A stretch of DNA of 64,000 bases from a virus. Positions within the stretch are counted from its first letter, which is position 1. Each line of letters starts with the position of its first letter. The translations under genes and the position numbers were made by a program. The stretch spans positions 1-64,000 of the IMG/VR virus record IMGVR_UViG_3300035148_000415; one strand, given 5' to 3'. The notes under the pieces are model-generated. The model saw only the letters and a program-made list of their open reading frames with translations. It had not been told where the DNA came from and ran no database searches. This document shows, piece after piece, positions 4,243 through 54,149 of the stretch.

Positions 4243-4577
4243 GTGCAAACATCTACACCCACCCGGAGGCGTACGGCCTCACCGTCGTCGCCGACGTGGA
4301 GGCGGCCAGCGGCTACGAGTTCGACACGTTCGTGATCTGGAGGGACAAGACCGGCGCCTTCTGGTGGGCGCAGGACCAGGGCTGCTCCTGCCCCGTCCCG
4401 TTCGACGGCAAGGACCTGTCGAACCTGCCGTCGGGGAGCCTGAAGGACGCGATCACCGACCTGAAGGCGTGGATGGCCGAGAGTCCCGGGTCGAACCGCA
4501 CGTACGAGGGACGGCTGGCGCTCGACAAGCTGATCCACGAGACGTCGATCCGGCTGGTCGAGGAGGGGCGGCCATGA
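4239..4577 (+). CDS. hypothetical protein (GCSCPVPF motif)
   Basis: GTGA overlap; 112 aa, high GC3. Confidence 0.55.
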   Translation: MSANIYTHPEAYGLTVVADVEAASGYEFDTFVIWRDKTGAFWWAQDQGCSCPVPFDGKDLSNLPSGSLKDAITDLKAWMAESPGSNRTYEGRLALDKLIHETSIRLVEEGRP

Positions 4578-5220: not shown

Positions 5221-5426
5221 GGATCGACGGCAGGCCCGACGGGGCCGACTTCCGGCTCATGACTGGGTGCTGGGGACTCATGCACAGGAACGGAGTCCCG
5301 TCCCTATGGAGGTACGACGGATCTGAGTGGTCGTACCTCACCGACCTCGATACCGACCTGGCCAACCTGGTCAAGATGCTCGACCACTACCGCAGGACCG
5401 CACCGCGCAACAAGGAGGAGCAGTGA
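5217..5426 (+). CDS. hypothetical protein
   Basis: ATGA overlap; 69 aa. Confidence 0.5.
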   Translation: MRIDGRPDGADFRLMTGCWGLMHRNGVPSLWRYDGSEWSYLTDLDTDLANLVKMLDHYRRTAPRNKEEQ

Positions 5427-5584
5427 GCAAGAAGCGCAAGAAGAGCAGGAAGCAGAACGTCGTCGTGGTCATGGTGAAGGGCAAGCGCGGCAAGCGCGGC
5501 CTCGACGGGCCGCCAGGCCCTCCCGGACCGATGGGTCCGCGCGGGATCGACTACGTCCACGGCCAGGAGGAGTGGGTCAAGTGA
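5423..5584 (+). CDS. 53-aa basic protein with a collagen-like (G-X-Y)x8 tract
   Basis: GTGA overlap; GKR GKR GLD GPP GPP GPM GPR GID at aa 20-43 (nt 5480-5551). Confidence 0.5.
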   Translation: MSKKRKKSRKQNVVVVMVKGKRGKRGLDGPPGPPGPMGPRGIDYVHGQEEWVK

Positions 5585-6235: not shown

Positions 6236-6777
6236 GGTACGTGTTCCTGGACACCGAGACGACCAGCCTCGACCGCTACAAGCGGCAGATCTGGGACCTG
6301 GCCTACATCATCCGCGACCCCGGCAACGGGCACGACGACACGGAGCGGCAATTCTTCTTCAGCGCCAGCCTGAAGGACGCCGACCCGATCTCCCTGAACA
6401 TCGGGCGCTACTACGAGCGGCACCCGAAGCCGTACTACATGTACGGAGGGAACTCCCATTACGAGGCCGATGCGCTGCGCGAGGTTGCGGAGGACCTGCG
6501 AGGGGCCACCATCGTCGGGGCGGTGCCGTCGTTCGACGAGGAGACGCTGGCGAAGATGCTGCACAAGCGGCTGGGCCTGCAGCCGACCTGGCGCTATCAC
6601 CTCGTCGACATCGAGACGCTGGTCGCAGGACATCTCGGAGTGCTTCCGCCGTGGAACTACGACGAGATCATCAGGGCGACCGACCTCCCGCCCATCACGG
6701 ACAGGGAGCGGCACACCGCGATCGGAGACGCCCGCACCGTGCGCGACCTCTGGGACTGGTGGGTGCAGTTGCGATGA
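6232..6777 (+). CDS. DEDDh 3'-5' exonuclease (DnaQ-like)
   Basis: ExoI FLDTETTS, ExoII VPSFDEETL, ExoIII HTAIGDARTV (H-x4-D). Confidence 0.85.
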   Translation: MRYVFLDTETTSLDRYKRQIWDLAYIIRDPGNGHDDTERQFFFSASLKDADPISLNIGRYYERHPKPYYMYGGNSHYEADALREVAEDLRGATIVGAVPSFDEETLAKMLHKRLGLQPTWRYHLVDIETLVAGHLGVLPPWNYDEIIRATDLPPITDRERHTAIGDARTVRDLWDWWVQLR

Positions 6778-7232: not shown

Positions 7233-7305
7233 CTCCGCGTAGCTCAGTGGATAGAGCAACGGCCTCCTAAGCCGTCGGTCGCAGGTTCGAGTCCTGCCGC
7301 GGAGG
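7233..7305 (+). tRNA. tRNA-Arg, anticodon CCT (reads AGG)
   Basis: Hand-folded cloverleaf: acceptor CTCCGCG/CGCGGAG, D stem GCTC/GAGC, anticodon stem ACGGC/GCCGT with loop CTCCTAA, variable CGGTC, T arm GCAGG-TTCGAGT-CCTGC, discriminator G; no encoded CCA. Confidence 0.9.
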
Positions 7306-7354
7306 CGAACCTCCAGTACCGCGCAGCGCCTAGACTCTGCGCAACGGACGAAAG

Positions 7355-9052
7355 GTGTCTGAAGTGACGATGCAGCCGGGCGTTCCGATCCACGACCTCA
7401 ACCAGTCGGCCGGCGACCAGACCTCGGACCTCGCTGAGGTCGAGGCGCTGAGCCGCATCGTCCCGATGAAGCCGCTCGGCATCAGCGGCCTGAACAGGAA
7501 CGTCGGGTATGTCACCGAGGAGTTCCTTCCGGCTCTGAAGGGCCAGAAGGCGGCGAAGATCTACAACGAGATGCTGGCGAACAGCCCGTTGATCGGTGCT
7601 TCGGTGTCGACGATCGAGATGCTGCTGAAGAACATCTCGTGGGAGGTGGTGGCTCCGAGCGAGAGCGACGGCGCGAAGCAGGGCGAAGAGGTGCTCCGAA
7701 TGTCCATGGACGAGATGGACACCGGGTGGTCGGACTTCATCGCGGAGGCGCTGTCGTTCATCTGGTACGGATGGGCGTTCTTCGAGACGACGTACGCCCG
7801 CAGCAGCGGAGCCGTCGTCTGGGCGGACATGTCGGTCCGTGCGCAGGAGACGCTTGTGCGCTGGGTGTTCGACGACCTCGGCAGGGCCGTCGGGATGGTC
7901 CAGTCGGCTGCGCCGAACTACGCGTTCAGGACCATCCCGTTGAGCCGGGGCGTCCATATCCGCAACAGGAGCCGCAAGCGCAACCCGGAGGGCATCAGTG
8001 CGCTGCGCAACGCCTACGAGCCCTGGTACTACAGCAAGCGGATGATGCAGATCGAGGCGATCGGCCTTGAGCGGGACCTGGCCGGCCTGCCGATCATGTG
8101 GCTGCCCGCCGACCTGCTGCGCGACTCGGACAAGAACCCGAACAAGAGGAAGCAGGTCGACCAGTTCACGAAGCTCGTCCGGTCCGTGCGCCGCGACGCC
8201 AACGAGGGCCTGGTGCTGCCGTTGGAGTACGACAGCGACACCAAGCAGAAGAGGTACGAGTTCCAGCTGCTGAACTCCGGCGGTGGCAGGCAGTTCGACA
8301 CCAACAGCATCATCAACCGGTACGAGCAGCGCATGCTGCAGGCGATGATGACCGACTTCATCATGCTCGGGGCGCTGTCGAAGACCGGTTCGTACGCGAT
8401 GCACCTGGACAAGACCGGCATGCTGCGAGCAGCGCTGAACGGACACGCCTCCGCGATCGCAGAGGCCCTGAACCGCCAGGCGGTGCCGAAGCTGATGGCG
8501 ATGAACTCGATCCAGAAGCAGGATTGGCCGAAGATCGTCCCGTCCGACGTCGATGCGCCGAACCTGGGCGAGCTGGCGCAGTTCATGGGCGCGATGGCGC
8601 AGATGGGCATGCAGTTCTTCCCGGATCCCGACATCGAGGCGTTCGTGCGGAAGAGCGCCAGGATGCCGGAGCTCAGCGACTCCGAGCGCGAGGTCAGGAC
8701 GTCGGAGAAGGCGAAGACGGACATCACCAGGTTCATCGGCGTTCAGAGCGCACTGCTGCAGGCGAAGGCGCAGATCAGGGAGGCTTCGGCCCAGGAGGAC
8801 CAGTCCATGTCGATCTCCTCGGACCCCGCCGCCGAGCGCGACGCGCTCGCGCTCATGCAGCAGGGACCGCAGGGAGGCCCTGAGCAGCAGGCGCAGCAGG
8901 CCGCCCAGGAGCAGGCCCAGCAGCAGGCCCAGCAGGACCAGCAGGCCCAGCAGCAGGAGAAGCACGACATGGCGATGGCGCAGCAGCGGCAGAAGATGGA
9001 TCTCGCCGCCGAGAAGCAGAAGGCGCAACTGCAACAAGCGCGCAAGAAGTAG
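7355..9052 (+). CDS. portal protein (candidate)
   Basis: 565-aa first large gene of the head module, upstream of protease/scaffold/capsid genes; Gln/Ala-rich C-terminal tail; start ambiguous (GTG 7355, GTG 7364, ATG 7370). Confidence 0.65.
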   Translation: MSEVTMQPGVPIHDLNQSAGDQTSDLAEVEALSRIVPMKPLGISGLNRNVGYVTEEFLPALKGQKAAKIYNEMLANSPLIGASVSTIEMLLKNISWEVVAPSESDGAKQGEEVLRMSMDEMDTGWSDFIAEALSFIWYGWAFFETTYARSSGAVVWADMSVRAQETLVRWVFDDLGRAVGMVQSAAPNYAFRTIPLSRGVHIRNRSRKRNPEGISALRNAYEPWYYSKRMMQIEAIGLERDLAGLPIMWLPADLLRDSDKNPNKRKQVDQFTKLVRSVRRDANEGLVLPLEYDSDTKQKRYEFQLLNSGGGRQFDTNSIINRYEQRMLQAMMTDFIMLGALSKTGSYAMHLDKTGMLRAALNGHASAIAEALNRQAVPKLMAMNSIQKQDWPKIVPSDVDAPNLGELAQFMGAMAQMGMQFFPDPDIEAFVRKSARMPELSDSEREVRTSEKAKTDITRFIGVQSALLQAKAQIREASAQEDQSMSISSDPAAERDALALMQQGPQGGPEQQAQQAAQEQAQQQAQQDQQAQQQEKHDMAMAQQRQKMDLAAEKQKAQLQQARKK

Positions 9053-9522: not shown

Positions 9523-12500
9523 ATGGATCGTGATGTGGTGCTGGACGTTCTCTTCGCGAAGGCGATGGCGGACGAGTGGGTCGCGGGCGTCGATGCGCTC
9601 GCAGAGCTGTGCAAGTCGCTGGACCGTTGCGAACGCGCGATCGCGGCGAAGGGGCTGCTGCGCGCCTATGCGAACGCCATGTCCCGCGGGGATGTGGAGA
9701 AGATGCACGAGCTGTCCGACGCGATGGACGGGGTCGTGATCGGCAAGGCGTTCGAGCTGTTCAACTTCCAGACCGGGGCCCGGGAGGTCGAGGTCGTCAG
9801 GGACAGCAAGGGGAGGTTCAGCAGGTACTTGGCGAACTCCCAGTCGAAGGTGGCCCCGAAGTCGGTCGATCCTGACGAGAAGCGCAAGAGGGGCGACTAT
9901 GTGGCGTCGATCTCCGGCGCCCGGATGGAGCGCCTGAACACCGACCTCGCAGGAGGAACCCCGAACTCCATGTCGGCGAACGGCATCGATCAGCAGATGG
10001 TGCAGAGGGGCAGGGAGGACGCCGGGAGGATCAGGGCGATCAACGAGTTCCAGGACGAGCTGCTCGGGCTGTTCGGGAACAACAAGGACGTCATGGTCGT
10101 GATCCAGGGCGAGCAGATGGCTGGCAACCCCGGGGACGTCGTGACGCTCGGACTGCAGGAGCCGGTGAACGATCAGGCGCTCGCAGCGGCCGGCGGCGAC
10201 TCCAGGCTGATGATGGGGCTCAGGCCGAATGCGGCTCCGGATACCCGCGAGAAGTTCGAGATGTTCAACCAGTTGATCGACTCCGGTATCAGGCCCGATG
10301 TGGCCGGGGAACTGGTCAACAGCGGCAACGGCGCCGGAGCGGCGGCAAGGGTCGGCAATGCGCTGATGCAGTACACGGGCGCCGCGCCGAGCAAGACGAG
10401 CCAGAAGGCGATCCGCCACTTCCAGACTGCGGATGCGCTCGGCTCCTACTTCATGCGTTCCGGGCAGCCGCAGCTGATGGCTGCAGGAACCGCGCTGAAG
10501 AACGTGGCGGCGATGGGCGGAAAGCTGAACGAGAGCCACTACCAGCTCGCCGAGCGGATGAACTACCGGTTCCGCGGGATGAAGGACAACCTCCCGCAGC
10601 TGTTCACCGAGTCGATGGCCTCCGGTCCGCACAGGGTGGCGACGGCGCTGTTCAACGACCCGAACCTCGGACCGCAGCGGTGGGCCGAGATCAGGGACAA
10701 GGTGTTCTCGCAGCCGGCCAGGAGGGAGCGGGCGCTCTCTACCGACAAGGGCGGCAACGTGCAGTTCTCCGACACCACTGCCGCGATCGCGTCGTACATG
10801 GATCGCAACCCCAGGTTCACCAACAGGATGTCTCCGCGAGACTTCGTCGACAGGTTCGTCGGCGATATCGCCGTGACGTCGCTGATCCCGGAGATCCCGG
10901 CGGACAAGCGCGCGGTCGAACTGGGCCAGCAGGCGGGTTTCGGCGTACCGTCGTCGGGCATCATCATCCGGTCGGACGGGCAGGCGAAGGAGATGTACCG
11001 GGGCGTGGGCGAAGACCACTACCTGCCGTTCTCCGCGAAGGCGCTCCCCGAGCTGCGCGATGCGCAGTACGTCAGGACGAGGGTTCTCGGAGGCCACACC
11101 GGCGAGGACATCACGACGCTCGTAGCGTCCGGTGCGAGGCGCGCCACGGTCGTTTCAGGATCCGGCGTGTTCTCCATCGAGTTGAAGCCGAACACGTCCC
11201 TGGTGGGCCGTATGGCCCAGCCCGAGGTTGCTGCGATGGGGGAGCGGTACGAACGCATCCTCGACAAGTTGTCGTCGAGCGGGATCTATGCGGTCGATCT
11301 GCCGAACGAGACGATGACGGAGCTGCGCCGGAAGGCCGCCGAGTTCACCGGGAAGATGCCGGAGGACGAGGAGTACAAGACGCACCTCACGAAACTGGTG
11401 ACGAAGGCGAGGGCGCAGGCCGCGCAGATCACGCAGGAGGACATCGACAGCATCACCGAGCGCGTCGACGCGCAGATGGAGCTCGACACGTCGGCGCAGT
11501 CTCCGCAGCAGAAGGCGCGCCTGAGGGACGAGCTGCTGAAGGACGCGATGCAGGACAAGGAGAACGAGAAGGTCAGGACGCTCTCCTTGAACGGCGAGGG
11601 GTACGCGCTGGCGCTGGAGACGCTGAGGATGCAGTACCCGTCGATCATCGCGAACGTGGAGTACGAGTCCATCAACGACTTCGTCAAGAACAGGGAGCTC
11701 GGAGGAGTCCTCGACCGTGCAGCGGTGACGATCAGGAACCGCAGGAACGCCAAGGACAGCGGCCTGGTGAAGCCGGGGCAGACGTCCGCGTTCGCCGGCA
11801 ACAAGAAGTGGAGCGACGAGCGGCTGGAGGCGAGCAGGGCCGAGGTGCTCTCCTCGGTCGTCCGCAGGGCGGCTGCAGCTGCAGAACCGGCCGCCGCTGC
11901 GAACGCCGCTGAGCCCGGTGGTGAAGCCGCAGGCGCCGCTGCTCCCGGCGGTGCTGCTGCGAACGCGGCGGCGGCGGCGAGGGCGGGGACGCTCCCTGCA
12001 GCCGCAGGCGGTGCCGATGCTGCTGCGGCCCCTTCGCGCGGGACCGGGGCGACCGTCGCGACGCTGCGCACGACGATGGACAAGTCCACCGAGAACGCGC
12101 TGAACGCGGGCGCATCCAAGCTGTCCGGCCTGCTGGTGGCCGACGGGGTGTCGGTGGATCAGATATCGGGCAAGAAGTTCCTCGACATGCTGATCGACGA
12201 CGATCCGAACAGCGATGCGGAGGACGCGAAGCAGCCCCGCAGGGCGCAGAAGGCGTGGGCGCAGGCCATACCGACGGCGAAGCGCGGGTACTTCACCGGA
12301 TCGATCAGCGGCTCCGCGCTCAGCGGCCTCGGCGCCGGGGTCACCGACCCTGTCGGCATGGAGCATTCGATGCGGTCTCCGGAGGGGATCGTCGGAGTCA
12401 TGTACGCGACCTTCGCCGGGAACAAGCACCTGCTCGCAGGGCTGCAGCACGACCAGTCGGTCAGCCCTGCTGCATCCGCGCTCAGCGAGGACCAGAAGGC

Positions 12501-13182
12501 GGAGCTCGGCGCTGCTGTCGACGAACTGGCGTCGTTGCAGCTGATGCACTCGGGCGCCACCACTTCCCAGGCCTCCGAGAAGCTCGACGAGGTGACCCCG
12601 TCGTTCTTCGTGAGGCCCGAGTACCTGCGTTTCGTCGAGCAGAACATCCAGTCCGGCGGCTTGCCGGAGCAGTTGGCGAACCTCGAGAAGGTGTTGAACG
12701 ACGACAGCGCGCCGGAGACCGCTCAGAGGAAGAGGGCGGCGGCAGGAGCTCTGGACCTGCTCAAGGGCGACGACAAGTTCCGCAGCGAGGTCATGCACGG
12801 CACCGATATCAGCGCCGACCCGTTCGAGGGTCTGAGCGTGCTCGGGCTGCTGGCCCTCCAGTCGAAGATCCAGCAGGAGATCAACGCAGCGACGCCGTCC
12901 GGAACCGGCAGGGGGAAGGCGCTGATCGAAGCGCTGGGCATCGATTTCTCGTCCATCGGATCCACGGACCAGCCTGCGCTGCTCAAGGCGAAGCAGGATG
13001 CGTACAAGCAGTACCAGGACGCCATCGGCGCGGAGTACGTGTACCGGCTGATGGGGGGTGGTGATGTCGGCCCAAAAGTACTAGGGCAGCACAGGGGGAG
13101 GCTGTCCAAGAACAGCGACCTGGTGGAGGAGTTCCTCCGGCTGACTCGGGAAAGCCCTCCGTCGCTGGTTCCGCGAGCGTAG
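9523..13182 (+). CDS. giant head-module protein (1219 aa), function unknown
   Basis: Uninterrupted high-GC3 ORF directly after portal region; Ala-rich linker about nt 11870-12060; no catalytic motif recognised. Confidence 0.75.
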   Translation: MDRDVVLDVLFAKAMADEWVAGVDALAELCKSLDRCERAIAAKGLLRAYANAMSRGDVEKMHELSDAMDGVVIGKAFELFNFQTGAREVEVVRDSKGRFSRYLANSQSKVAPKSVDPDEKRKRGDYVASISGARMERLNTDLAGGTPNSMSANGIDQQMVQRGREDAGRIRAINEFQDELLGLFGNNKDVMVVIQGEQMAGNPGDVVTLGLQEPVNDQALAAAGGDSRLMMGLRPNAAPDTREKFEMFNQLIDSGIRPDVAGELVNSGNGAGAAARVGNALMQYTGAAPSKTSQKAIRHFQTADALGSYFMRSGQPQLMAAGTALKNVAAMGGKLNESHYQLAERMNYRFRGMKDNLPQLFTESMASGPHRVATALFNDPNLGPQRWAEIRDKVFSQPARRERALSTDKGGNVQFSDTTAAIASYMDRNPRFTNRMSPRDFVDRFVGDIAVTSLIPEIPADKRAVELGQQAGFGVPSSGIIIRSDGQAKEMYRGVGEDHYLPFSAKALPELRDAQYVRTRVLGGHTGEDITTLVASGARRATVVSGSGVFSIELKPNTSLVGRMAQPEVAAMGERYERILDKLSSSGIYAVDLPNETMTELRRKAAEFTGKMPEDEEYKTHLTKLVTKARAQAAQITQEDIDSITERVDAQMELDTSAQSPQQKARLRDELLKDAMQDKENEKVRTLSLNGEGYALALETLRMQYPSIIANVEYESINDFVKNRELGGVLDRAAVTIRNRRNAKDSGLVKPGQTSAFAGNKKWSDERLEASRAEVLSSVVRRAAAAAEPAAAANAAEPGGEAAGAAAPGGAAANAAAAARAGTLPAAAGGADAAAAPSRGTGATVATLRTTMDKSTENALNAGASKLSGLLVADGVSVDQISGKKFLDMLIDDDPNSDAEDAKQPRRAQKAWAQAIPTAKRGYFTGSISGSALSGLGAGVTDPVGMEHSMRSPEGIVGVMYATFAGNKHLLAGLQHDQSVSPAASALSEDQKAELGAAVDELASLQLMHSGATTSQASEKLDEVTPSFFVRPEYLRFVEQNIQSGGLPEQLANLEKVLNDDSAPETAQRKRAAAGALDLLKGDDKFRSEVMHGTDISADPFEGLSVLGLLALQSKIQQEINAATPSGTGRGKALIEALGIDFSSIGSTDQPALLKAKQDAYKQYQDAIGAEYVYRLMGGGDVGPKVLGQHRGRLSKNSDLVEEFLRLTRESPPSLVPRA

Positions 13183-50311: not shown

Positions 50312-51646
50312 ATGGCTTACAACATGTTCGTCGTCGGCGAAGACTTCGACCCGGACTGGCTGCCCGGATCGCCCGGCTCTCCGTCGCCGTTCCTCCCCGT
50401 GGAGGAGGCGTACCTCAACGACGGCCAATCATGGATGCGGGTCACCACCGGCTGGGTCGCCGGGGAGGACAACGCGCTCAAGGCGCTGTCCGGACACGTC
50501 GGCGCGCTGAGGGCGTCGGCCGCACCGACCAGGGACCACTACATCCGCGTCTCGTGGAGCACGTACGCGGCGGAGGCGACATCGGTCTGGGTCGACGGGG
50601 AGCAGGTCTGGTCCACGGACGACACGATCACCGCGAGCAACGGCAGCACGAGGACGGGCCCGTACGACCCGGGATCGATGCACACGGTGGAGGTCAGGGC
50701 GAAGGAGTACGACTCGGTCGTGGTGGAGTCCAGCGGTCCGATCCAGGTCACCATGGAGCAGATGCAGCCTCCGATGGGGCTGAGCATCACCGGCATAACG
50801 TCGACCAGCTGCACCATCTGGTGGACCCAGGATCCGCAGGCGAAGGACGTCTTCGTCTACGACGTGGACACCTCCACCAACCCGCACACCTTCACCCAGA
50901 TCGCGCACGTGTACGACAAGGGCTCCTGGACCCGGGAGGGCATGCAGTCGGGCAAGACGTACACGATGTGCATCAGGGCGAAGCACAGCTCCGGCATCCT
51001 CTCGCCGCCGTCCGCGTACGTCACCACGACGGCGCAGACCACCTTCCCCGCAGGTATCTACGTGTTCCAGGCGACCGTCGCCGACACCTGGATCATCGGG
51101 CCGAACCGGTGGCTCGGCCATGAGCAGCAGGCGCGCAACGAGCTGACGTCCGGCAATGCGATGCCGCTCCCGAACATCGAATGGGGCATGCGGGTCCTGG
51201 TGTTCGCCGGATACAGGGAGACGACCACCGGCAAGTCCATCGACGAGTTCTTCGCCAGCCATGGCGGGAACGTCACGGTGCGCGTGCAGCAGATCTCGAC
51301 GTACATCGCCAGGAAGAACACCGTGCACGGGCTGAACGAGCCGGTGCTGGCGAGATGGAGGCCGCACCACTACACCTCGATCCCGTCCCAGGCCCCGGTG
51401 CCGGACGAGTCTGTCGCCCCGTTCCAGGGCCCGCGGCTCGTGCGCGGGCAGGCGGAGTACGTGACGCTCCCGTCGTCCTGGAGCACCAAGTTCTTCCACA
51501 CGTCCTCCGGTGCGGCCGGGGCTCCGATGGAGGGCCTGGCGCTCGGATATCCGCAGCAGACCGGCTACGACTACACCGATTACATGGTCCACCCGTCCCT
51601 CGCCGACGAGCCGCGGCTGGGCGAGCTGAGGTTCCACGTATGGTGA
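50312..51646 (+). CDS. fibronectin type III domain protein, probable receptor-binding/fibre protein
   Basis: FN3-like PPMGLSITGITSTSCTIWWT..GKTYTMCIRAK..SPPSAYVTTT (nt 50768-51031), a second FN3-like unit upstream. Confidence 0.65.
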   Translation: MAYNMFVVGEDFDPDWLPGSPGSPSPFLPVEEAYLNDGQSWMRVTTGWVAGEDNALKALSGHVGALRASAAPTRDHYIRVSWSTYAAEATSVWVDGEQVWSTDDTITASNGSTRTGPYDPGSMHTVEVRAKEYDSVVVESSGPIQVTMEQMQPPMGLSITGITSTSCTIWWTQDPQAKDVFVYDVDTSTNPHTFTQIAHVYDKGSWTREGMQSGKTYTMCIRAKHSSGILSPPSAYVTTTAQTTFPAGIYVFQATVADTWIIGPNRWLGHEQQARNELTSGNAMPLPNIEWGMRVLVFAGYRETTTGKSIDEFFASHGGNVTVRVQQISTYIARKNTVHGLNEPVLARWRPHHYTSIPSQAPVPDESVAPFQGPRLVRGQAEYVTLPSSWSTKFFHTSSGAAGAPMEGLALGYPQQTGYDYTDYMVHPSLADEPRLGELRFHVW

Positions 51647-51906
51647 GCGCCGAGGAGAAGTGGGCGAACAGGATCCAGACGTCGGAGATCCTGGGGGTGT
51701 CGCTCCATGCGATCTCCCTGCTCGCCAGGGACAACAAGCTGAAGCCGGACTGCATCACGTGCGGGCGCATCCGCTGGCTCCGTTCGGAGCTTGCGCAGCG
51801 CAGGCAGGAGCTGAGGGACCACCTTCGGAGTCGCTATCCTGACAAGACCGATGAGTTGATAATCGAGGACGAAGATGCTAAGATAGGTGTGTCGGGAACA
51901 GGATGA
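51643..51906 (+). CDS. excisionase/MerR-type HTH DNA-binding protein
   Basis: GTGA overlap; IQTSEILGVSLHAISLLARDNKL..IRWLRSEL. Confidence 0.6.
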   Translation: MSAEEKWANRIQTSEILGVSLHAISLLARDNKLKPDCITCGRIRWLRSELAQRRQELRDHLRSRYPDKTDELIIEDEDAKIGVSGTG

Positions 51907-52044: not shown

Positions 52045-52074
52045 TTGCATATTCGGACGCAATAGTGGTATAAT
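52045..52074 (+). promoter_or_regulatory. promoter P1 (consensus sigma-70/SigA type, extended -10)
   Basis: TTGCAT, 18-nt spacer, TGg-TATAAT; TATAATAGAGATAACG (52069-52084) identical to P2. Confidence 0.65.
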
Positions 52075-52110
52075 AGAGATAACGCAAAGGGATTAACCAT
52101 CCCCGCGTGA

Positions 52111-52165: not shown

Positions 52166-52534
52166 ATGGGCGAGAAGCCCATCTTGAAGCCCATACCGAT
52201 CGGCTCCAAGCCGGTCTATGTGGGCGAAGGAGTGAGATTCCGCATGGATTGGGCAGACCCAATCCACCACCCGCTCGTCTGGGAGGAGACCGGCAAGAAC
52301 GGTCGACTCCAAGAGCGGATGGAGATCCGCTTCATCGGGACGATCCTCGACGACGACGGCGAGTGGGCCGACCGGCCCACCTGCCTCGTCTTCCGGGGGA
52401 TGGAGTGGAAGGCCTTGCAGGCTTCTCTGGCTGCACAGGCCTCGAACCCGTTCGTCGTGTTCGATCCGAAGGAACTGGACAGCTGGTACGCCAGCTGCAC
52501 AGGTCCGGGGCAGATCGAGGTCATCAGGATCTGA
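52166..52534 (+). CDS. hypothetical protein
   Basis: GGGAAGGGGGG SD; 122 aa; high GC3. Confidence 0.65.
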   Translation: MGEKPILKPIPIGSKPVYVGEGVRFRMDWADPIHHPLVWEETGKNGRLQERMEIRFIGTILDDDGEWADRPTCLVFRGMEWKALQASLAAQASNPFVVFDPKELDSWYASCTGPGQIEVIRI

Positions 52535-52617
52535 GGATCCTGATGGCCACCCCCGCGTCGTGAGGGCGACGTTAAACAGGCCTTAGGCCCTCAGCGTCCT
52601 GCATCCATCGATGCGGG
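52523..52617 (+). repeat. structured intergenic element, copy 1 (partial architecture)
   Basis: Hairpins ATCAGGATC-tgag-GATCCTGAT, TGAGGGC..19 nt..GCCCTCA, CCTGCATC-catc-GATGCGGG. Confidence 0.7.
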
Positions 52618-52676
52618 GGTGGCACGCGAGAAGCGTCCTCCGGCGAAGAACCGGACATCTTCCGAAAGGGAACAGC

Positions 52677-53015
52677 ATGAATAAGAAGTCGGTCAAGAAG
52701 ACCGCCCGCACCGCGGCGACCGGTCTCGGCTACGCAGCCGCTGCTGCGGCGATCTTCGGGTCGGCGTACATCGAGGCCGTCAACGGCCTCGAGGCCGGGC
52801 GGGAGAGGGTCGCGGCACTGTGCCGCGACTTCGACTCCGCCCAGCGGGGCGACCGGTTCCAGGTGGTGGGGGACCACCGCACTGTCACGGTCATCGCCGG
52901 CCAGGGGCGGATCGATCCGGCGGGTCACACCGCCATGATCGACGGCCTCTACGTGGGCGGGGTCGTCGAGTACCGGGTCTTCCGGTACGGACGGTTGGTC
53001 CGCACCGTCAGCTGA
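52677..53015 (+). CDS. hypothetical protein with N-terminal Ala-rich hydrophobic segment
   Basis: GAAAGGGAA SD; MNKKSVKKTARTAATGLGYAAAAAAIFGSAYI.. Confidence 0.6.
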   Translation: MNKKSVKKTARTAATGLGYAAAAAAIFGSAYIEAVNGLEAGRERVAALCRDFDSAQRGDRFQVVGDHRTVTVIAGQGRIDPAGHTAMIDGLYVGGVVEYRVFRYGRLVRTVS

Positions 53016-53022
53016 GACGGTG

Positions 53023-53151
53023 CACGGCCGGATGTCCGCCACATCCAACATGCAGCATGCACGCTGCCGTCGTCAGGGCGACGTAAAAGAGGCCTCAGGC
53101 CCTGAGCGTGGATGCACGGCCCCCTCGATCAAGAGGGGGCCGTTCGCATCC
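53023..53151 (+). repeat. structured intergenic element, copy 2
   Basis: 27-nt and 24-nt blocks identical to copy 3; stems GGATGT/ACATCC, GCAGC/GCTGC, TCAGGGC/GCCCTGA, GGATGC-a-CGGCCCCCTC / GAGGGGGCCG-ttc-GCATCC. Confidence 0.75.
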
Positions 53152-53193
53152 GGTGGCGCGCGAAGAACGCGCGGTGAGTTCCGAGGAGGAACG

Positions 53194-53553
53194 ATGAGCA
53201 AGAGCAAGACGATCCCGTCGTTGGCCCAGATGAGGGCCGACAACGCCGAGGCTGCCGAGTGGGTCACCGACGAGGTGGGGCGCTACCGCGCCCACCGTGC
53301 CAACCGCCCCAACTGGAACGAGCACGCCTGCACCTGCTGCGGGCACCTGGAGTGCATCCGGTTCGAAGAGGAAAGCTGTAACTACGACGGATGCCCCAAG
53401 TGCAATACGGGGATCGGTGCGGAGTACTGCAGCCGCGGCAGCCACGAGTGGTCCTACCGTTCTCCTTACAGTGACATCCCGGCGGACTGCATCATCTGCG
53501 GTGCCTGGGATCTGAGGGACGAGGACGAGGACGACGAAGTCTGGTGGAACTGA
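53194..53553 (+). CDS. Cys-rich zinc-binding protein, acidic C-terminus
   Basis: GAGGAGGAA SD; CTCCGHLEC..C..CPKC..C..CIIC. Confidence 0.65.
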   Translation: MSKSKTIPSLAQMRADNAEAAEWVTDEVGRYRAHRANRPNWNEHACTCCGHLECIRFEEESCNYDGCPKCNTGIGAEYCSRGSHEWSYRSPYSDIPADCIICGAWDLRDEDEDDEVWWN

Positions 53554-53558
53554 CTCGT

Positions 53559-53676
53559 CACGGCCGGATGTCCGCCACATCCAACTGAGCCGGCAGTGTC
53601 CGGCCGTCGTCAGGGCGACGTAAAAGAGCCTCTTTGGCCCTGAGCGGGCCCGACACACCGATCCAGGTGCGTCGGG
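53559..53676 (+). repeat. structured intergenic element, copy 3
   Basis: Stems GGATGT/ACATCC, GCCGG/CCGGC, TCAGGGC/GCCCTGA, CCCGAC-a-CACC / GGTG-c-GTCGGG. Confidence 0.75.
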
Positions 53677-53709
53677 TATGAGGAGCAGCAGATGATCTGT
53701 TTGATGCAT

Positions 53710-53738
53710 TTGAATATGCACGTTATCTCTGATATAAT
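53710..53738 (+). promoter_or_regulatory. promoter P2 (consensus sigma-70/SigA type, extended -10)
   Basis: TTGAAT, 17-nt spacer, TGa-TATAAT; shares 16-mer TATAATAGAGATAACG (53733-53748) with P1. Confidence 0.7.
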
Positions 53739-53747
53739 AGAGATAAC
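53722..53747. promoter_or_regulatory. perfect 9-bp inverted repeat bracketing the P2 -10 box (operator candidate)
   Basis: GTTATCTCT-gatataat-AGAGATAAC; P1 carries only the right half-site. Confidence 0.55.
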
Positions 53748-53859
53748 GAGGACGGAGAAAGTCTGCCCTCGCAAGAGGCCCTCGGCAAGCACGCCGGGGG
53801 CCTTACCCATGCCCGAGAAGGGCCTATCGGGGGTGAGCCCCCAGAGAGGAGCGACAGCA

Positions 53860-54078
53860 ATGTCCTCCAAGCGCATCAAGCGGCAGAAGCAGCAGCAGGC
53901 ACTGGCGGTCACCGCCGGTGTGGTCGAGGGGATGACCCTCGGCCTGCAGTTTGTTCTGCTCGTCCACACCGCGGCCTCCGTCATCGGAGAGAAGCGGGCG
54001 GCGATCAAGGCCCGCAAGTCCGCCGTCGAGAAGGCTCAGGCCTACCTCGCCACCGAGGCGGAAGCGCAGCAGCAGTAG
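53860..54078 (+). CDS. small protein with basic N-terminus and one hydrophobic helix
   Basis: AGAGAGGAG SD; MSSKRIKRQKQQQ..VVEGMTLGLQFVLLVHTAASVI.. Confidence 0.6.
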   Translation: MSSKRIKRQKQQQALAVTAGVVEGMTLGLQFVLLVHTAASVIGEKRAAIKARKSAVEKAQAYLATEAEAQQQ

Positions 54079-54091
54079 TTCACACGCCCAG

Positions 54092-54149
54092 GGGGCCGGA
54101 GAGCATCGATCCTGATGCTTCTCCGGCCCCTCCGGGCCCTCTTTTTTTT
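54092..54149 (+). terminator. intrinsic terminator with T8 tract
   Basis: GGGGCCGGAGAGCATC-gatcct-GATGCTTCTCCGGCCCC (one bulge), small GGCCC/GGGCC hairpin, then TTTTTTTT 54142-54149. Confidence 0.75.

Follow-up and report, generated by a model that had tools for sequence, protein, structure and literature searches.

Three structured elements in a small phage operon, one in the spacer behind each of its genes A, B and C, belong to the pistol class of self-cleaving ribozymes (RF02679). The operon lies around positions 52,166 to 54,078 of a 64,000-nucleotide (nt) stretch of DNA from an uncultured phage, namely, positions 1 to 64,000 of IMG/VR record IMGVR_UViG_3300035148_000415, which is hereafter called the window. 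By both sequence and structure, the elements, here denoted copies 1, 2 and 3 in 5′ to 3′ order, are members of the pistol class proper, beyond mere resemblance to it. To the reading of all three as pistol-class self-cleaving ribozymes, with cleavage predicted from the sequence, we assign a probability of roughly 0.85. They are three new members of an already described RNA class and represent neither a new RNA class nor a new mechanism.

Three members of the pistol class in a phage operon

When the region was scanned with all 4227 Rfam families as covariance models, the pistol ribozyme was the sole family matched, three times and always on the + strand (Table 1). Copy 1 scored nearly twice the gathering threshold of 34.5 bits. 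Across the whole 64-kb window, the Rfam 15 families yielded only tRNA at E ≤ 1 besides the three pistol matches, and no further self-cleaving ribozyme, cis-regulatory or antitermination family from Rfam was matched there. The original prediction, made from the letters of the DNA without database searches, had stated that no described family corresponds to these elements and had itself named a match in a cmscan search against Rfam as the outcome that would speak against it. Such a match, to RF02679, was obtained for all three copies, with copies 1 and 2 exceeding the curated threshold; since the elements represent a described family, the claim of novelty fails. The more general proposition, that the elements are RNA structures maintained by selection, is borne out by the pistol match and by covariation in a wider alignment.

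The secondary structure of the copies is the same as that of the pistol class, with env25 and the Lysinibacillus sphaericus ribozyme as its representatives (Weinberg 2015; Harris 2015, PMC4604425): hairpin P1, a 6-bp pseudoknot, a 7-nt A-rich linker, helices P2 and P3, and a 2-nt scissile junction, which in copy 3 has a variant form. The class core UCGU..GGGCGA..AAA..UUAG-GCCC..AGCG is likewise found in the window copies, and the class and the window copies are alike intergenic and associated with phage genes. Structural analysis and mutagenesis of the env25 pistol have implicated purine-32, the G33-C41 pair, G40 and G42 (PMC6154101). All of these residues, together with the A-rich linker, are present in 3 of the 3 copies, carried by core strings that begin with UUAG, UCAG and UUUG in copies 1, 2 and 3, respectively, and continue as G-CCCUNAG-C-G. 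The pseudoknot is fully paired (6/6) in every copy, as GAGGGC/GCCCUC in copy 1 and as CAGGGC/GCCCUG in copies 2 and 3. Pistol scission falls within the two-nucleotide P3-P2 junction, the length of which is fixed, whereas its identity "varies somewhat", with GU modestly conserved (PMC4604425). In copies 1 and 2, both a simple parser and constrained folding place P3, then a GU junction, then GGC pairing with GCC. When the pseudoknot bases were held single-stranded, each copy folded into P1, P2 and P3; each pseudoknot is estimated to be worth about −10 kcal/mol, which renders the ribozyme fold competitive with the unconstrained minimum free energy (MFE) structure of the isolated element.

Several regularities that had drawn attention to the locus are accounted for by this architecture. 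The 24-nt block CGTCGTCAGGGCGACGTAAAAGAG, identical in copies 2 and 3 as originally described (53068-53091 and 53605-53628), comprises P1, the P1 loop and the A-rich linker of the pistol; copy 1 carries the variant CGTCGTGAGGGCGACGTTAAACAG (52556-52579), and the degenerate pattern has 3 matches in the window and none in 100 shuffles. The reported covariation between TGAGGGC/GCCCTCA of copy 1 and TCAGGGC/GCCCTGA of copies 2 and 3 is real, but the pairing is not a simple hairpin stem: it is the pseudoknot, in which the loop of hairpin P1 pairs with the downstream P2-P3 junction. The GC-rich hairpin that was said to close each copy with a different sequence is indeed present and corresponds to the variable P3, the GATC-type loops having been noted for P3 of copies 2 and 3. 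The boundaries of the elements had to be revised: copy 1 extends over 52556-52624 rather than 52561-52593, copy 2 ends at 53158 rather than 53151, and copy 3 at 53683 rather than 53676. P3 of copy 2 is unusually long for the class, and the Rfam alignment of this copy stops short inside it; its 3′ half was assigned by inspection, the parser and constrained folding. The P3/P2 assignment of copy 3, which the parser mis-assigned, was made by hand.

Upstream of the pistol core, copies 2 and 3 share an accessory 5′ module which, in copy 2, lies outside both the pistol consensus and the Rfam match. It starts with the 27-nt block CACGGCCGGATGTCCGCCACATCCAAC, identical in the two copies as predicted and present exactly twice in the window (53023-53049 and 53559-53585; 0 expected from shuffles). 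The block is followed by a hairpin abutting the 24-nt block, for which the prediction of a conserved 5-bp stem and 6-nt loop despite a different sequence holds in both copies. Retention of this geometry under full replacement of the hairpin would be expected by chance in less than about 1% of random 16-mers, a figure that rests on two instances. Other pistols commonly have one or two hairpins immediately 5′ of P1, but these are unrelated in sequence; because of this, we read the hairpin as an accessory, structure-selected feature outside any larger conserved motif, which could serve in 3′-end protection or folding insulation. The 50 nt upstream of copy 1 also fold strongly (−28.7 kcal/mol, z = −6.8).

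Table 1. Coordinates of the pistol copies, of the surrounding operon and of related pistol loci (window positions unless an accession or another contig is named; scissile bonds are predictions)
Feature	Position	Strand	Description
Promoter-like site P1	52045-52074	+	TTGCAT, 18-nt spacer, TGGTATAAT (extended −10); proposed by reading
Gene A	52166-52534	+	122 amino acids (aa); open reading frame (ORF) and JGI gene call; no Pfam or PHROG match
Hairpin across gene A stop codon	52519-52548	+	13-bp inverted repeat directly 5′ of copy 1
Copy 1, Rfam RF02679 match	52556-52624	+	63.5 bits, E 7e-11; above gathering score
Copy 1 pistol	52556-52624	+	P1 52556-59/52568-71; pseudoknot 52562-67 with 52587-92
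Copy 1 pistol, 3′ half	P2 52580-82/52621-23; P3 52597-52618	+	P2 GCC/GGC; junction G52619-U52620
Copy 1 residues	G52594; G52586	+	G40 and purine-32 equivalents; predicted scissile bond G52619^U52620
Small hairpin after copy 1	52625-52635	+	CGC-GAGAA-GCG; 5 nt from predicted new 5′ end of gene B mRNA
Gene B	52677-53015	+	112 aa; hydrophobic N-terminal segment; no Pfam or PHROG match
Copy 2 accessory 5′ module	53023-53067	+	27-nt block (hairpin GGATGT-CCGCC-ACATCC 53030-53046) and hairpin GCAGC-ATGCAC-GCTGC 53052-53067
Copy 2, Rfam RF02679 match	53068-53141	+	36.6 bits; above gathering score
Copy 2 pistol	53068-53158	+	P1 53068-71/53080-83; pseudoknot 53074-79 with 53099-53104
Copy 2 pistol, 3′ half	P2 53092-94/53155-57; P3 53109-53152	+	P2 GCC/GGC; P3 44 nt; G40 equivalent G53106; predicted scissile bond G53153^U53154
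Gene C	53194-53553	+	119 aa; multiple CxxC pairs, as in zinc ribbons; no Pfam or PHROG match
Copy 3 accessory 5′ module	53559-53604	+	identical 27-nt block (hairpin 53566-53582) and hairpin GCCGG-CAGTGT-CCGGC 53589-53604
Copy 3, Rfam RF02679 match	53605-53681	+	30.9 bits, E 0.002 (local search); below gathering score
Copy 3 pistol (variant)	53605-53683	+	P1 53605-08/53617-20; pseudoknot 53611-16 with 53637-42
Copy 3 pistol, 3′ half	P2 53629-32/53680-83; P3 53648-53677	+	P2 CCUC/GAGG; G40 equivalent G53644; predicted variant scissile bond A53678^U53679
Promoter-like site P2	53710-53748	+	TTGAAT, 17 nt, TGATATAAT; scan 10/12 with TG
Gene D	53860-54078	+	72 aa; hydrophobic; no Pfam or PHROG match
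Terminator-like hairpin and T run	54088-54149	+	intrinsic-terminator-like; first such + strand site downstream of promoter-like site P1
Gordonia phage GMA7 pistol	NC_028673.1 63082-63150 (L039 5001-5069)	-	Rfam 44.1 bits
Gordonia phage GTE7 pistol	NC_016166.1 63988-64056 (L041 5001-5069)	-	Rfam 48.1 bits
Microbacterium phage Camille pistol	MH153800.1 40017-40075 (L040 5001-5059)	+	Rfam 36.2 bits
L028 pistol cluster	10957-11026, 11859-11928, 12692-12743	one strand	low-GC IMG/VR contig
L006 pistol cluster	4284-4328, 5411-5480, 6241-6310	one strand	three matches; low-GC IMG/VR contig
L027 pistol cluster	8424-8489, 8824-8892	one strand	low-GC IMG/VR contig

Covariation across phage pistols

A degenerate core pattern retrieved 32 IMG/VR loci with GC contents of 34-60%; the exact 24-nt core pattern gave no match in IMG/VR and, in collections of genomes and metagenomes, only three unrelated pistols and no relatives of this phage. 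MAFFT misaligned the 3′ halves of full-length pistols, in which P3 is too variable; model R1 was built from 16 sequences with P3 trimmed to 6+4+6 nt (alignment A2). The P2 and P3 pair counts in A2 are partly circular, the parser having required pairing, and only the counts for P1 and the pseudoknot are independent tests. A search with model R1 recovers precisely these three copies from the window, with 67.9, 51.7 and 42.5 bits for copies 1, 2 and 3 (E 2e-9 for copy 3); the next match is at 10 bits. In a model-guided alignment of 40 pistols, comprising the three window copies, pistols from viral contigs and those of three cultured actinophages, the pseudoknot, which is outside the structure of the model, is paired in all 240 cells and shows compensatory changes at 4 of its 6 pairs, and P1 is paired in 97.5% of cells. 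None of 500 shuffles matched the pairing values of P1 and the pseudoknot, and slid partners paired in 24-48%. The double compensatory change in copy 1 that figured in the original prediction is a G-C in place of C-G at the first pseudoknot pair, unique among the 40 aligned pistols. The ribozyme consensus accounts fully for the conserved core seen in unrelated phages.

According to its description, the pistol class is prevalent in Firmicutes and in environmental DNA, whereas the window comes from a probable actinophage with a GC content of about 66%. However, pistols also reside in cultured phages of actinobacteria, namely, Gordonia phages GMA7 and GTE7 (Getseptimavirus) and Microbacterium phage Camille (Table 1), where they score above the Rfam threshold and are located in gaps without annotation. 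These phages have high-GC actinobacterial hosts, as is probable for the window phage, and resemble the window in their intergenic, coding-strand pistols among small hypothetical genes, but display no detectable nucleotide similarity to it outside the ribozyme core, and GMA7 carries one pistol in its whole genome as opposed to three in the window. The same BLAST match was also obtained from Gordonia phages Amore2 and HayZem, and, relative to GMA7, the pseudoknot of GTE7 has A-U in place of G-C, a compensatory change. In the limited literature that was searchable, we found no paper that treats pistol ribozymes and actinophages together.

Clusters of pistols are not peculiar to this phage either. 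Four IMG/VR contigs (L028, L006, L027 and L017, the last with two to three matches) resemble the window in carrying 2-3 same-strand pistols spaced 400-900 nt apart with 1-2 small ORFs per gap, as seen in L028 and L027, where the ORFs were listed. They differ from it in having a GC content of 34-41%, unrelated flanking genes and no 27-nt block. Furthermore, the order stop codon, pistol, small hairpin, Shine-Dalgarno (SD) sequence and start codon is common to three unrelated loci (L033, L034 and L035). The multi-ribozyme arrangement is already documented for phage ribozymes, and the host group with pistols is also precedented at the sequence level.

Predicted catalysis, competing folds and alternative explanations

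Several observations weigh against efficient cleavage at all three sites, most of them concerning copy 3. Within the 40-pistol alignment, the neighbour of purine-32 (the A31 position) is U53635 in copy 3 and A in the other 39; an extra G (G53647) is inserted between the catalytic GCG and P3; and the 2-nt junction is AU instead of GU, an AU junction being found likewise in three other pistols (L020, L025 and L031). With this substitution at an otherwise invariant position, the insertion and the AU junction, copy 3 departs from the class, it scores below the Rfam threshold (30.9 vs 34.5 bits), and it precedes a promoter-like site with no gene directly after it. P2 of copy 3 has 4 bp; that of copies 1 and 2 has merely 3 bp, which is typical of the collected relatives. 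We regard copy 3 as pistol-derived and of uncertain activity; it may be weak or dead. Copy 1, for its part, faces a competing helix: 52546-52560 and 52609-52623 form 15-nt arms with 93% complementarity, the latter spanning the scissile junction together with the 3′ strands of P3 and P2. In nearest-neighbour calculations, the MFE structure of the full copy 1 spacer uses this helix (−81.2 kcal/mol, against about −71 kcal/mol for the ribozyme-compatible fold including the pseudoknot), so that the non-ribozyme fold, in which the scissile bond would be buried, is ~10 kcal/mol more stable. Copy 1 would then need to cleave co-transcriptionally, or be partly held off. Finally, no member of the pistol class has an established biological role, a situation shared with most self-cleaving ribozymes of bacteria and phages (PMC6765202).

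One explanation that would accommodate these observations is that the elements are pistol-derived but have lost catalysis and are kept as structured spacers, 3′-exonuclease blocks or insulators between cistrons. The sub-threshold score and altered invariant position of copy 3, the more stable alternative fold of copy 1 and the embedding of all copies among additional hairpins are all compatible with such a loss. However, copies 1 and 2 keep every catalytic and pseudoknot position along with a GU junction of the correct length, copy 1 scores far above the threshold, and the compensatory change maintains the pseudoknot, a pairing that is relevant only to the ribozyme fold. We therefore consider wholesale loss of catalysis improbable, if the foremost of the alternatives to self-cleaving pistols.

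Slightly less probable still, in our judgment, is that the pistols are conditional, with upstream accessory sequences gating cleavage through alternative pairing or a phage or host factor, such that processing of the operon would be regulated. Candidate gates are, in copy 1, the 15-nt strand complementary to P3 and P2, whose helix dominates the MFE structure, and, in copies 2 and 3, the perfectly conserved 27-nt block together with the adjoining hairpin, wholly replaced with its 5-bp/6-nt geometry kept. Modelling further predicts that the 5′ product of copy 1 cleavage refolds with its 3′ end paired in a long GC-rich helix, and the competing helix could act as a clamp after cleavage or represent an off-state. 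Against gating, the alternative pairings are copy-specific: copies 2 and 3 keep no equivalent of the copy 1 helix, and the idea of an alternative helix of riboswitch type, conserved among the copies, was set aside, given that the competing pairings differ in each copy. The 27-nt block has no match in IMG/VR, and the commonness of sequence-unrelated hairpins 5′ of P1 in other pistols fits generic 3′-end protection or folding insulation. A further candidate signal is the 6-nt loop GAUCNN closed by C-G, which is shared by P3 of copy 2 (GAUCAA, 53127-53132), P3 of copy 3 (GAUCCA, 53660-53665) and the operon terminator (GAUCCU, 54108-54113). The motif is in some excess, but its recognition was post hoc, and across the whole window GATC is over-represented 2.5-fold (479 observed vs 192 expected from base composition); the motif was set aside. 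If gating were to prove true, this would be the first naturally regulated pistol ribozyme, acting via alternative folding or a phage-encoded RNA-binding protein.

Readings of the elements as U-tract-less terminators or put/nut-like antitermination sites, suggested by GC-rich intergenic hairpins downstream of a promoter, are rejected as very improbable, because a + strand scan lists no terminator-like site (GC-rich hairpin and U tract) at any element, the first being at 54122-54147, because the pistol consensus accounts for the core common to unrelated phages of 34-60% GC, and because no Rfam antitermination family was matched.

The spacer of copy 3 deserves separate mention. All three gaps are non-coding, as originally proposed, but the placement between a stop codon and the next SD sequence does not hold for copy 3, which is followed by no convincing gene start. 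The 3′ strand of its P2 (GAGG, 53680-83) falls within an SD-like GAGGAG, after which comes ATG 53692 (53680-53694). This ATG opens a 128-aa ORF, 53692-54078, that runs through the AT-rich promoter-like island. The ORF is probably spurious, because the gene called by the JGI gene caller starts at 53860; were it real, folding of the ribozyme would sequester the ribosome-binding site of the ORF.

Proposed self-processing of a polycistronic phage mRNA

We return to the pistols as active ribozymes. Their most likely function is self-processing of a polycistronic mRNA. Processing of polycistronic transcripts has been proposed as a role for bacterial ribozymes (PMC6765202), and it comes close to one of the roles that were initially considered, namely, processing or mRNA-stabiliser sites with differential expression within the operon; the other candidates, put/nut signals, terminators without a U tract and protein-binding sites, find no support. 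A close parallel is with the clustered hammerhead ribozymes of prophages, which flank genes and cleave native polycistronic RNAs of ~2 kb in vitro (Perreault et al. 2011, PMC3088659). As in the window, these occupy successive intergenic gaps of a phage transcription unit and border individual genes or short blocks without a known function, and they have been proposed to cut a long phage transcript into gene-length mRNAs. Unlike the window elements, they belong to a different ribozyme class and their cleavage in vitro has been shown, whereas cleavage in the window is predicted from sequence.

From the family chemistry (PMC4604425, PMC6154101) and the layout of the locus, we infer the following course of events. 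A sigma-70-like extended −10 promoter at about 52045-52074 would drive the operon, with no terminator until 54088. Each spacer would fold while being transcribed, forming the P1 hairpin, the 6-bp pseudoknot in which the P1 loop pairs with the P2-P3 junction, the A-rich linker, P2 and the variable P3, whereupon the 2′-OH of the nucleotide between P3 and P2 would attack its own 3′ phosphate. The predicted cuts, G52619^U52620 and G53153^U53154, plus A53678^U53679 if copy 3 is active, would convert the polycistronic RNA into single-gene RNAs. The 5′ products would end in a 2′,3′-cyclic phosphate at the base of a stable P3 hairpin and a compact ribozyme body, with extra 3′-end protection afforded by the two accessory hairpins in copies 2 and 3 and by the 13-bp hairpin in copy 1. 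The 3′ products would start with a 5′-OH followed by a small hairpin and an intact SD sequence, at 57 and 40 nt before the respective start codons; in folds of the 3′ products, a GCGCG-AAGAA-CGCGC hairpin after copy 2 is analogous to that after copy 1. The likely consequence is that stability and translation of the neighbouring cistrons would be uncoupled. The effect of a 5′-OH on the stability of the downstream RNA, in either direction, depends on the RNase E and RNase J complement of the host. Another possibility is that the ribozyme-bounded gene B and gene C segments, with 5′-OH and 2′,3′-cyclic-phosphate ends, become substrates for RtcB-type ligation, yielding circular mRNAs.

The locus presents a compact natural case, with a single putative promoter and three tiny genes, each followed by a ribozyme, in which the idea of mRNA self-processing is testable on about 1.7 kb of DNA. 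Given that the phage analysed here is uncultured, the unannotated pistols of the cultured actinophages GMA7, GTE7 and Camille offer a more tractable experimental route.

Operon and phage context

The operon starts with promoter-like site P1 and continues with gene A, pistol 1, gene B, two hairpins and pistol 2, gene C, and two hairpins and pistol 3, after which come promoter-like site P2, gene D and the terminator-like site; the only + strand terminator-like sites listed by the scan are those at 54122-54147, after gene D. The −35 element of promoter-like site P1 matches at only 3 of 6 positions, and a simple promoter scan did not list the site. The two promoter-like sites have in common the 16-mer TATAATAGAGATAACG, and the −10 of promoter-like site P2 is bracketed by an inverted repeat, CGTTATCTCT/AGAGATAACG, that looks like an operator. 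Both islands, 52045-52084 and 53710-53748, are AT-rich within a 66% GC genome, and each is followed by hairpins in the 5′ untranslated region. Just upstream of the operon, an 88-aa product (51640-51906) has weak HTH_17 and excisionase-like matches and may be a regulator of the adjacent promoters.

Gene A has no homologue besides itself among 5.8 billion proteins. Gene C likewise matched only itself; with both lacking homologues, no syntenic comparison of the spacers is possible. A megablast search of the locus against 50,697 phage records also yielded no match. The window is phage DNA: a major head protein (PHROG 1005, E 2e-62) is among its products, as is a tape-measure protein that contains an M23 peptidase domain, and all genes are on one strand. 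The same uncultured phage occurs in four JGI samples at ≥99.96% identity, with no variation in the region among the four, and its capsid protein is at most 36% identical to that of any GenBank phage. The host is probably actinobacterial, because homologues of the DUF932 protein come almost exclusively from phages of Mycobacterium, Streptomyces, Arthrobacter, Gordonia and Microbacterium; the window phage would accordingly be an actinophage. It also carries its own tRNA-Arg (anticodon CCT) at 7233-7306.

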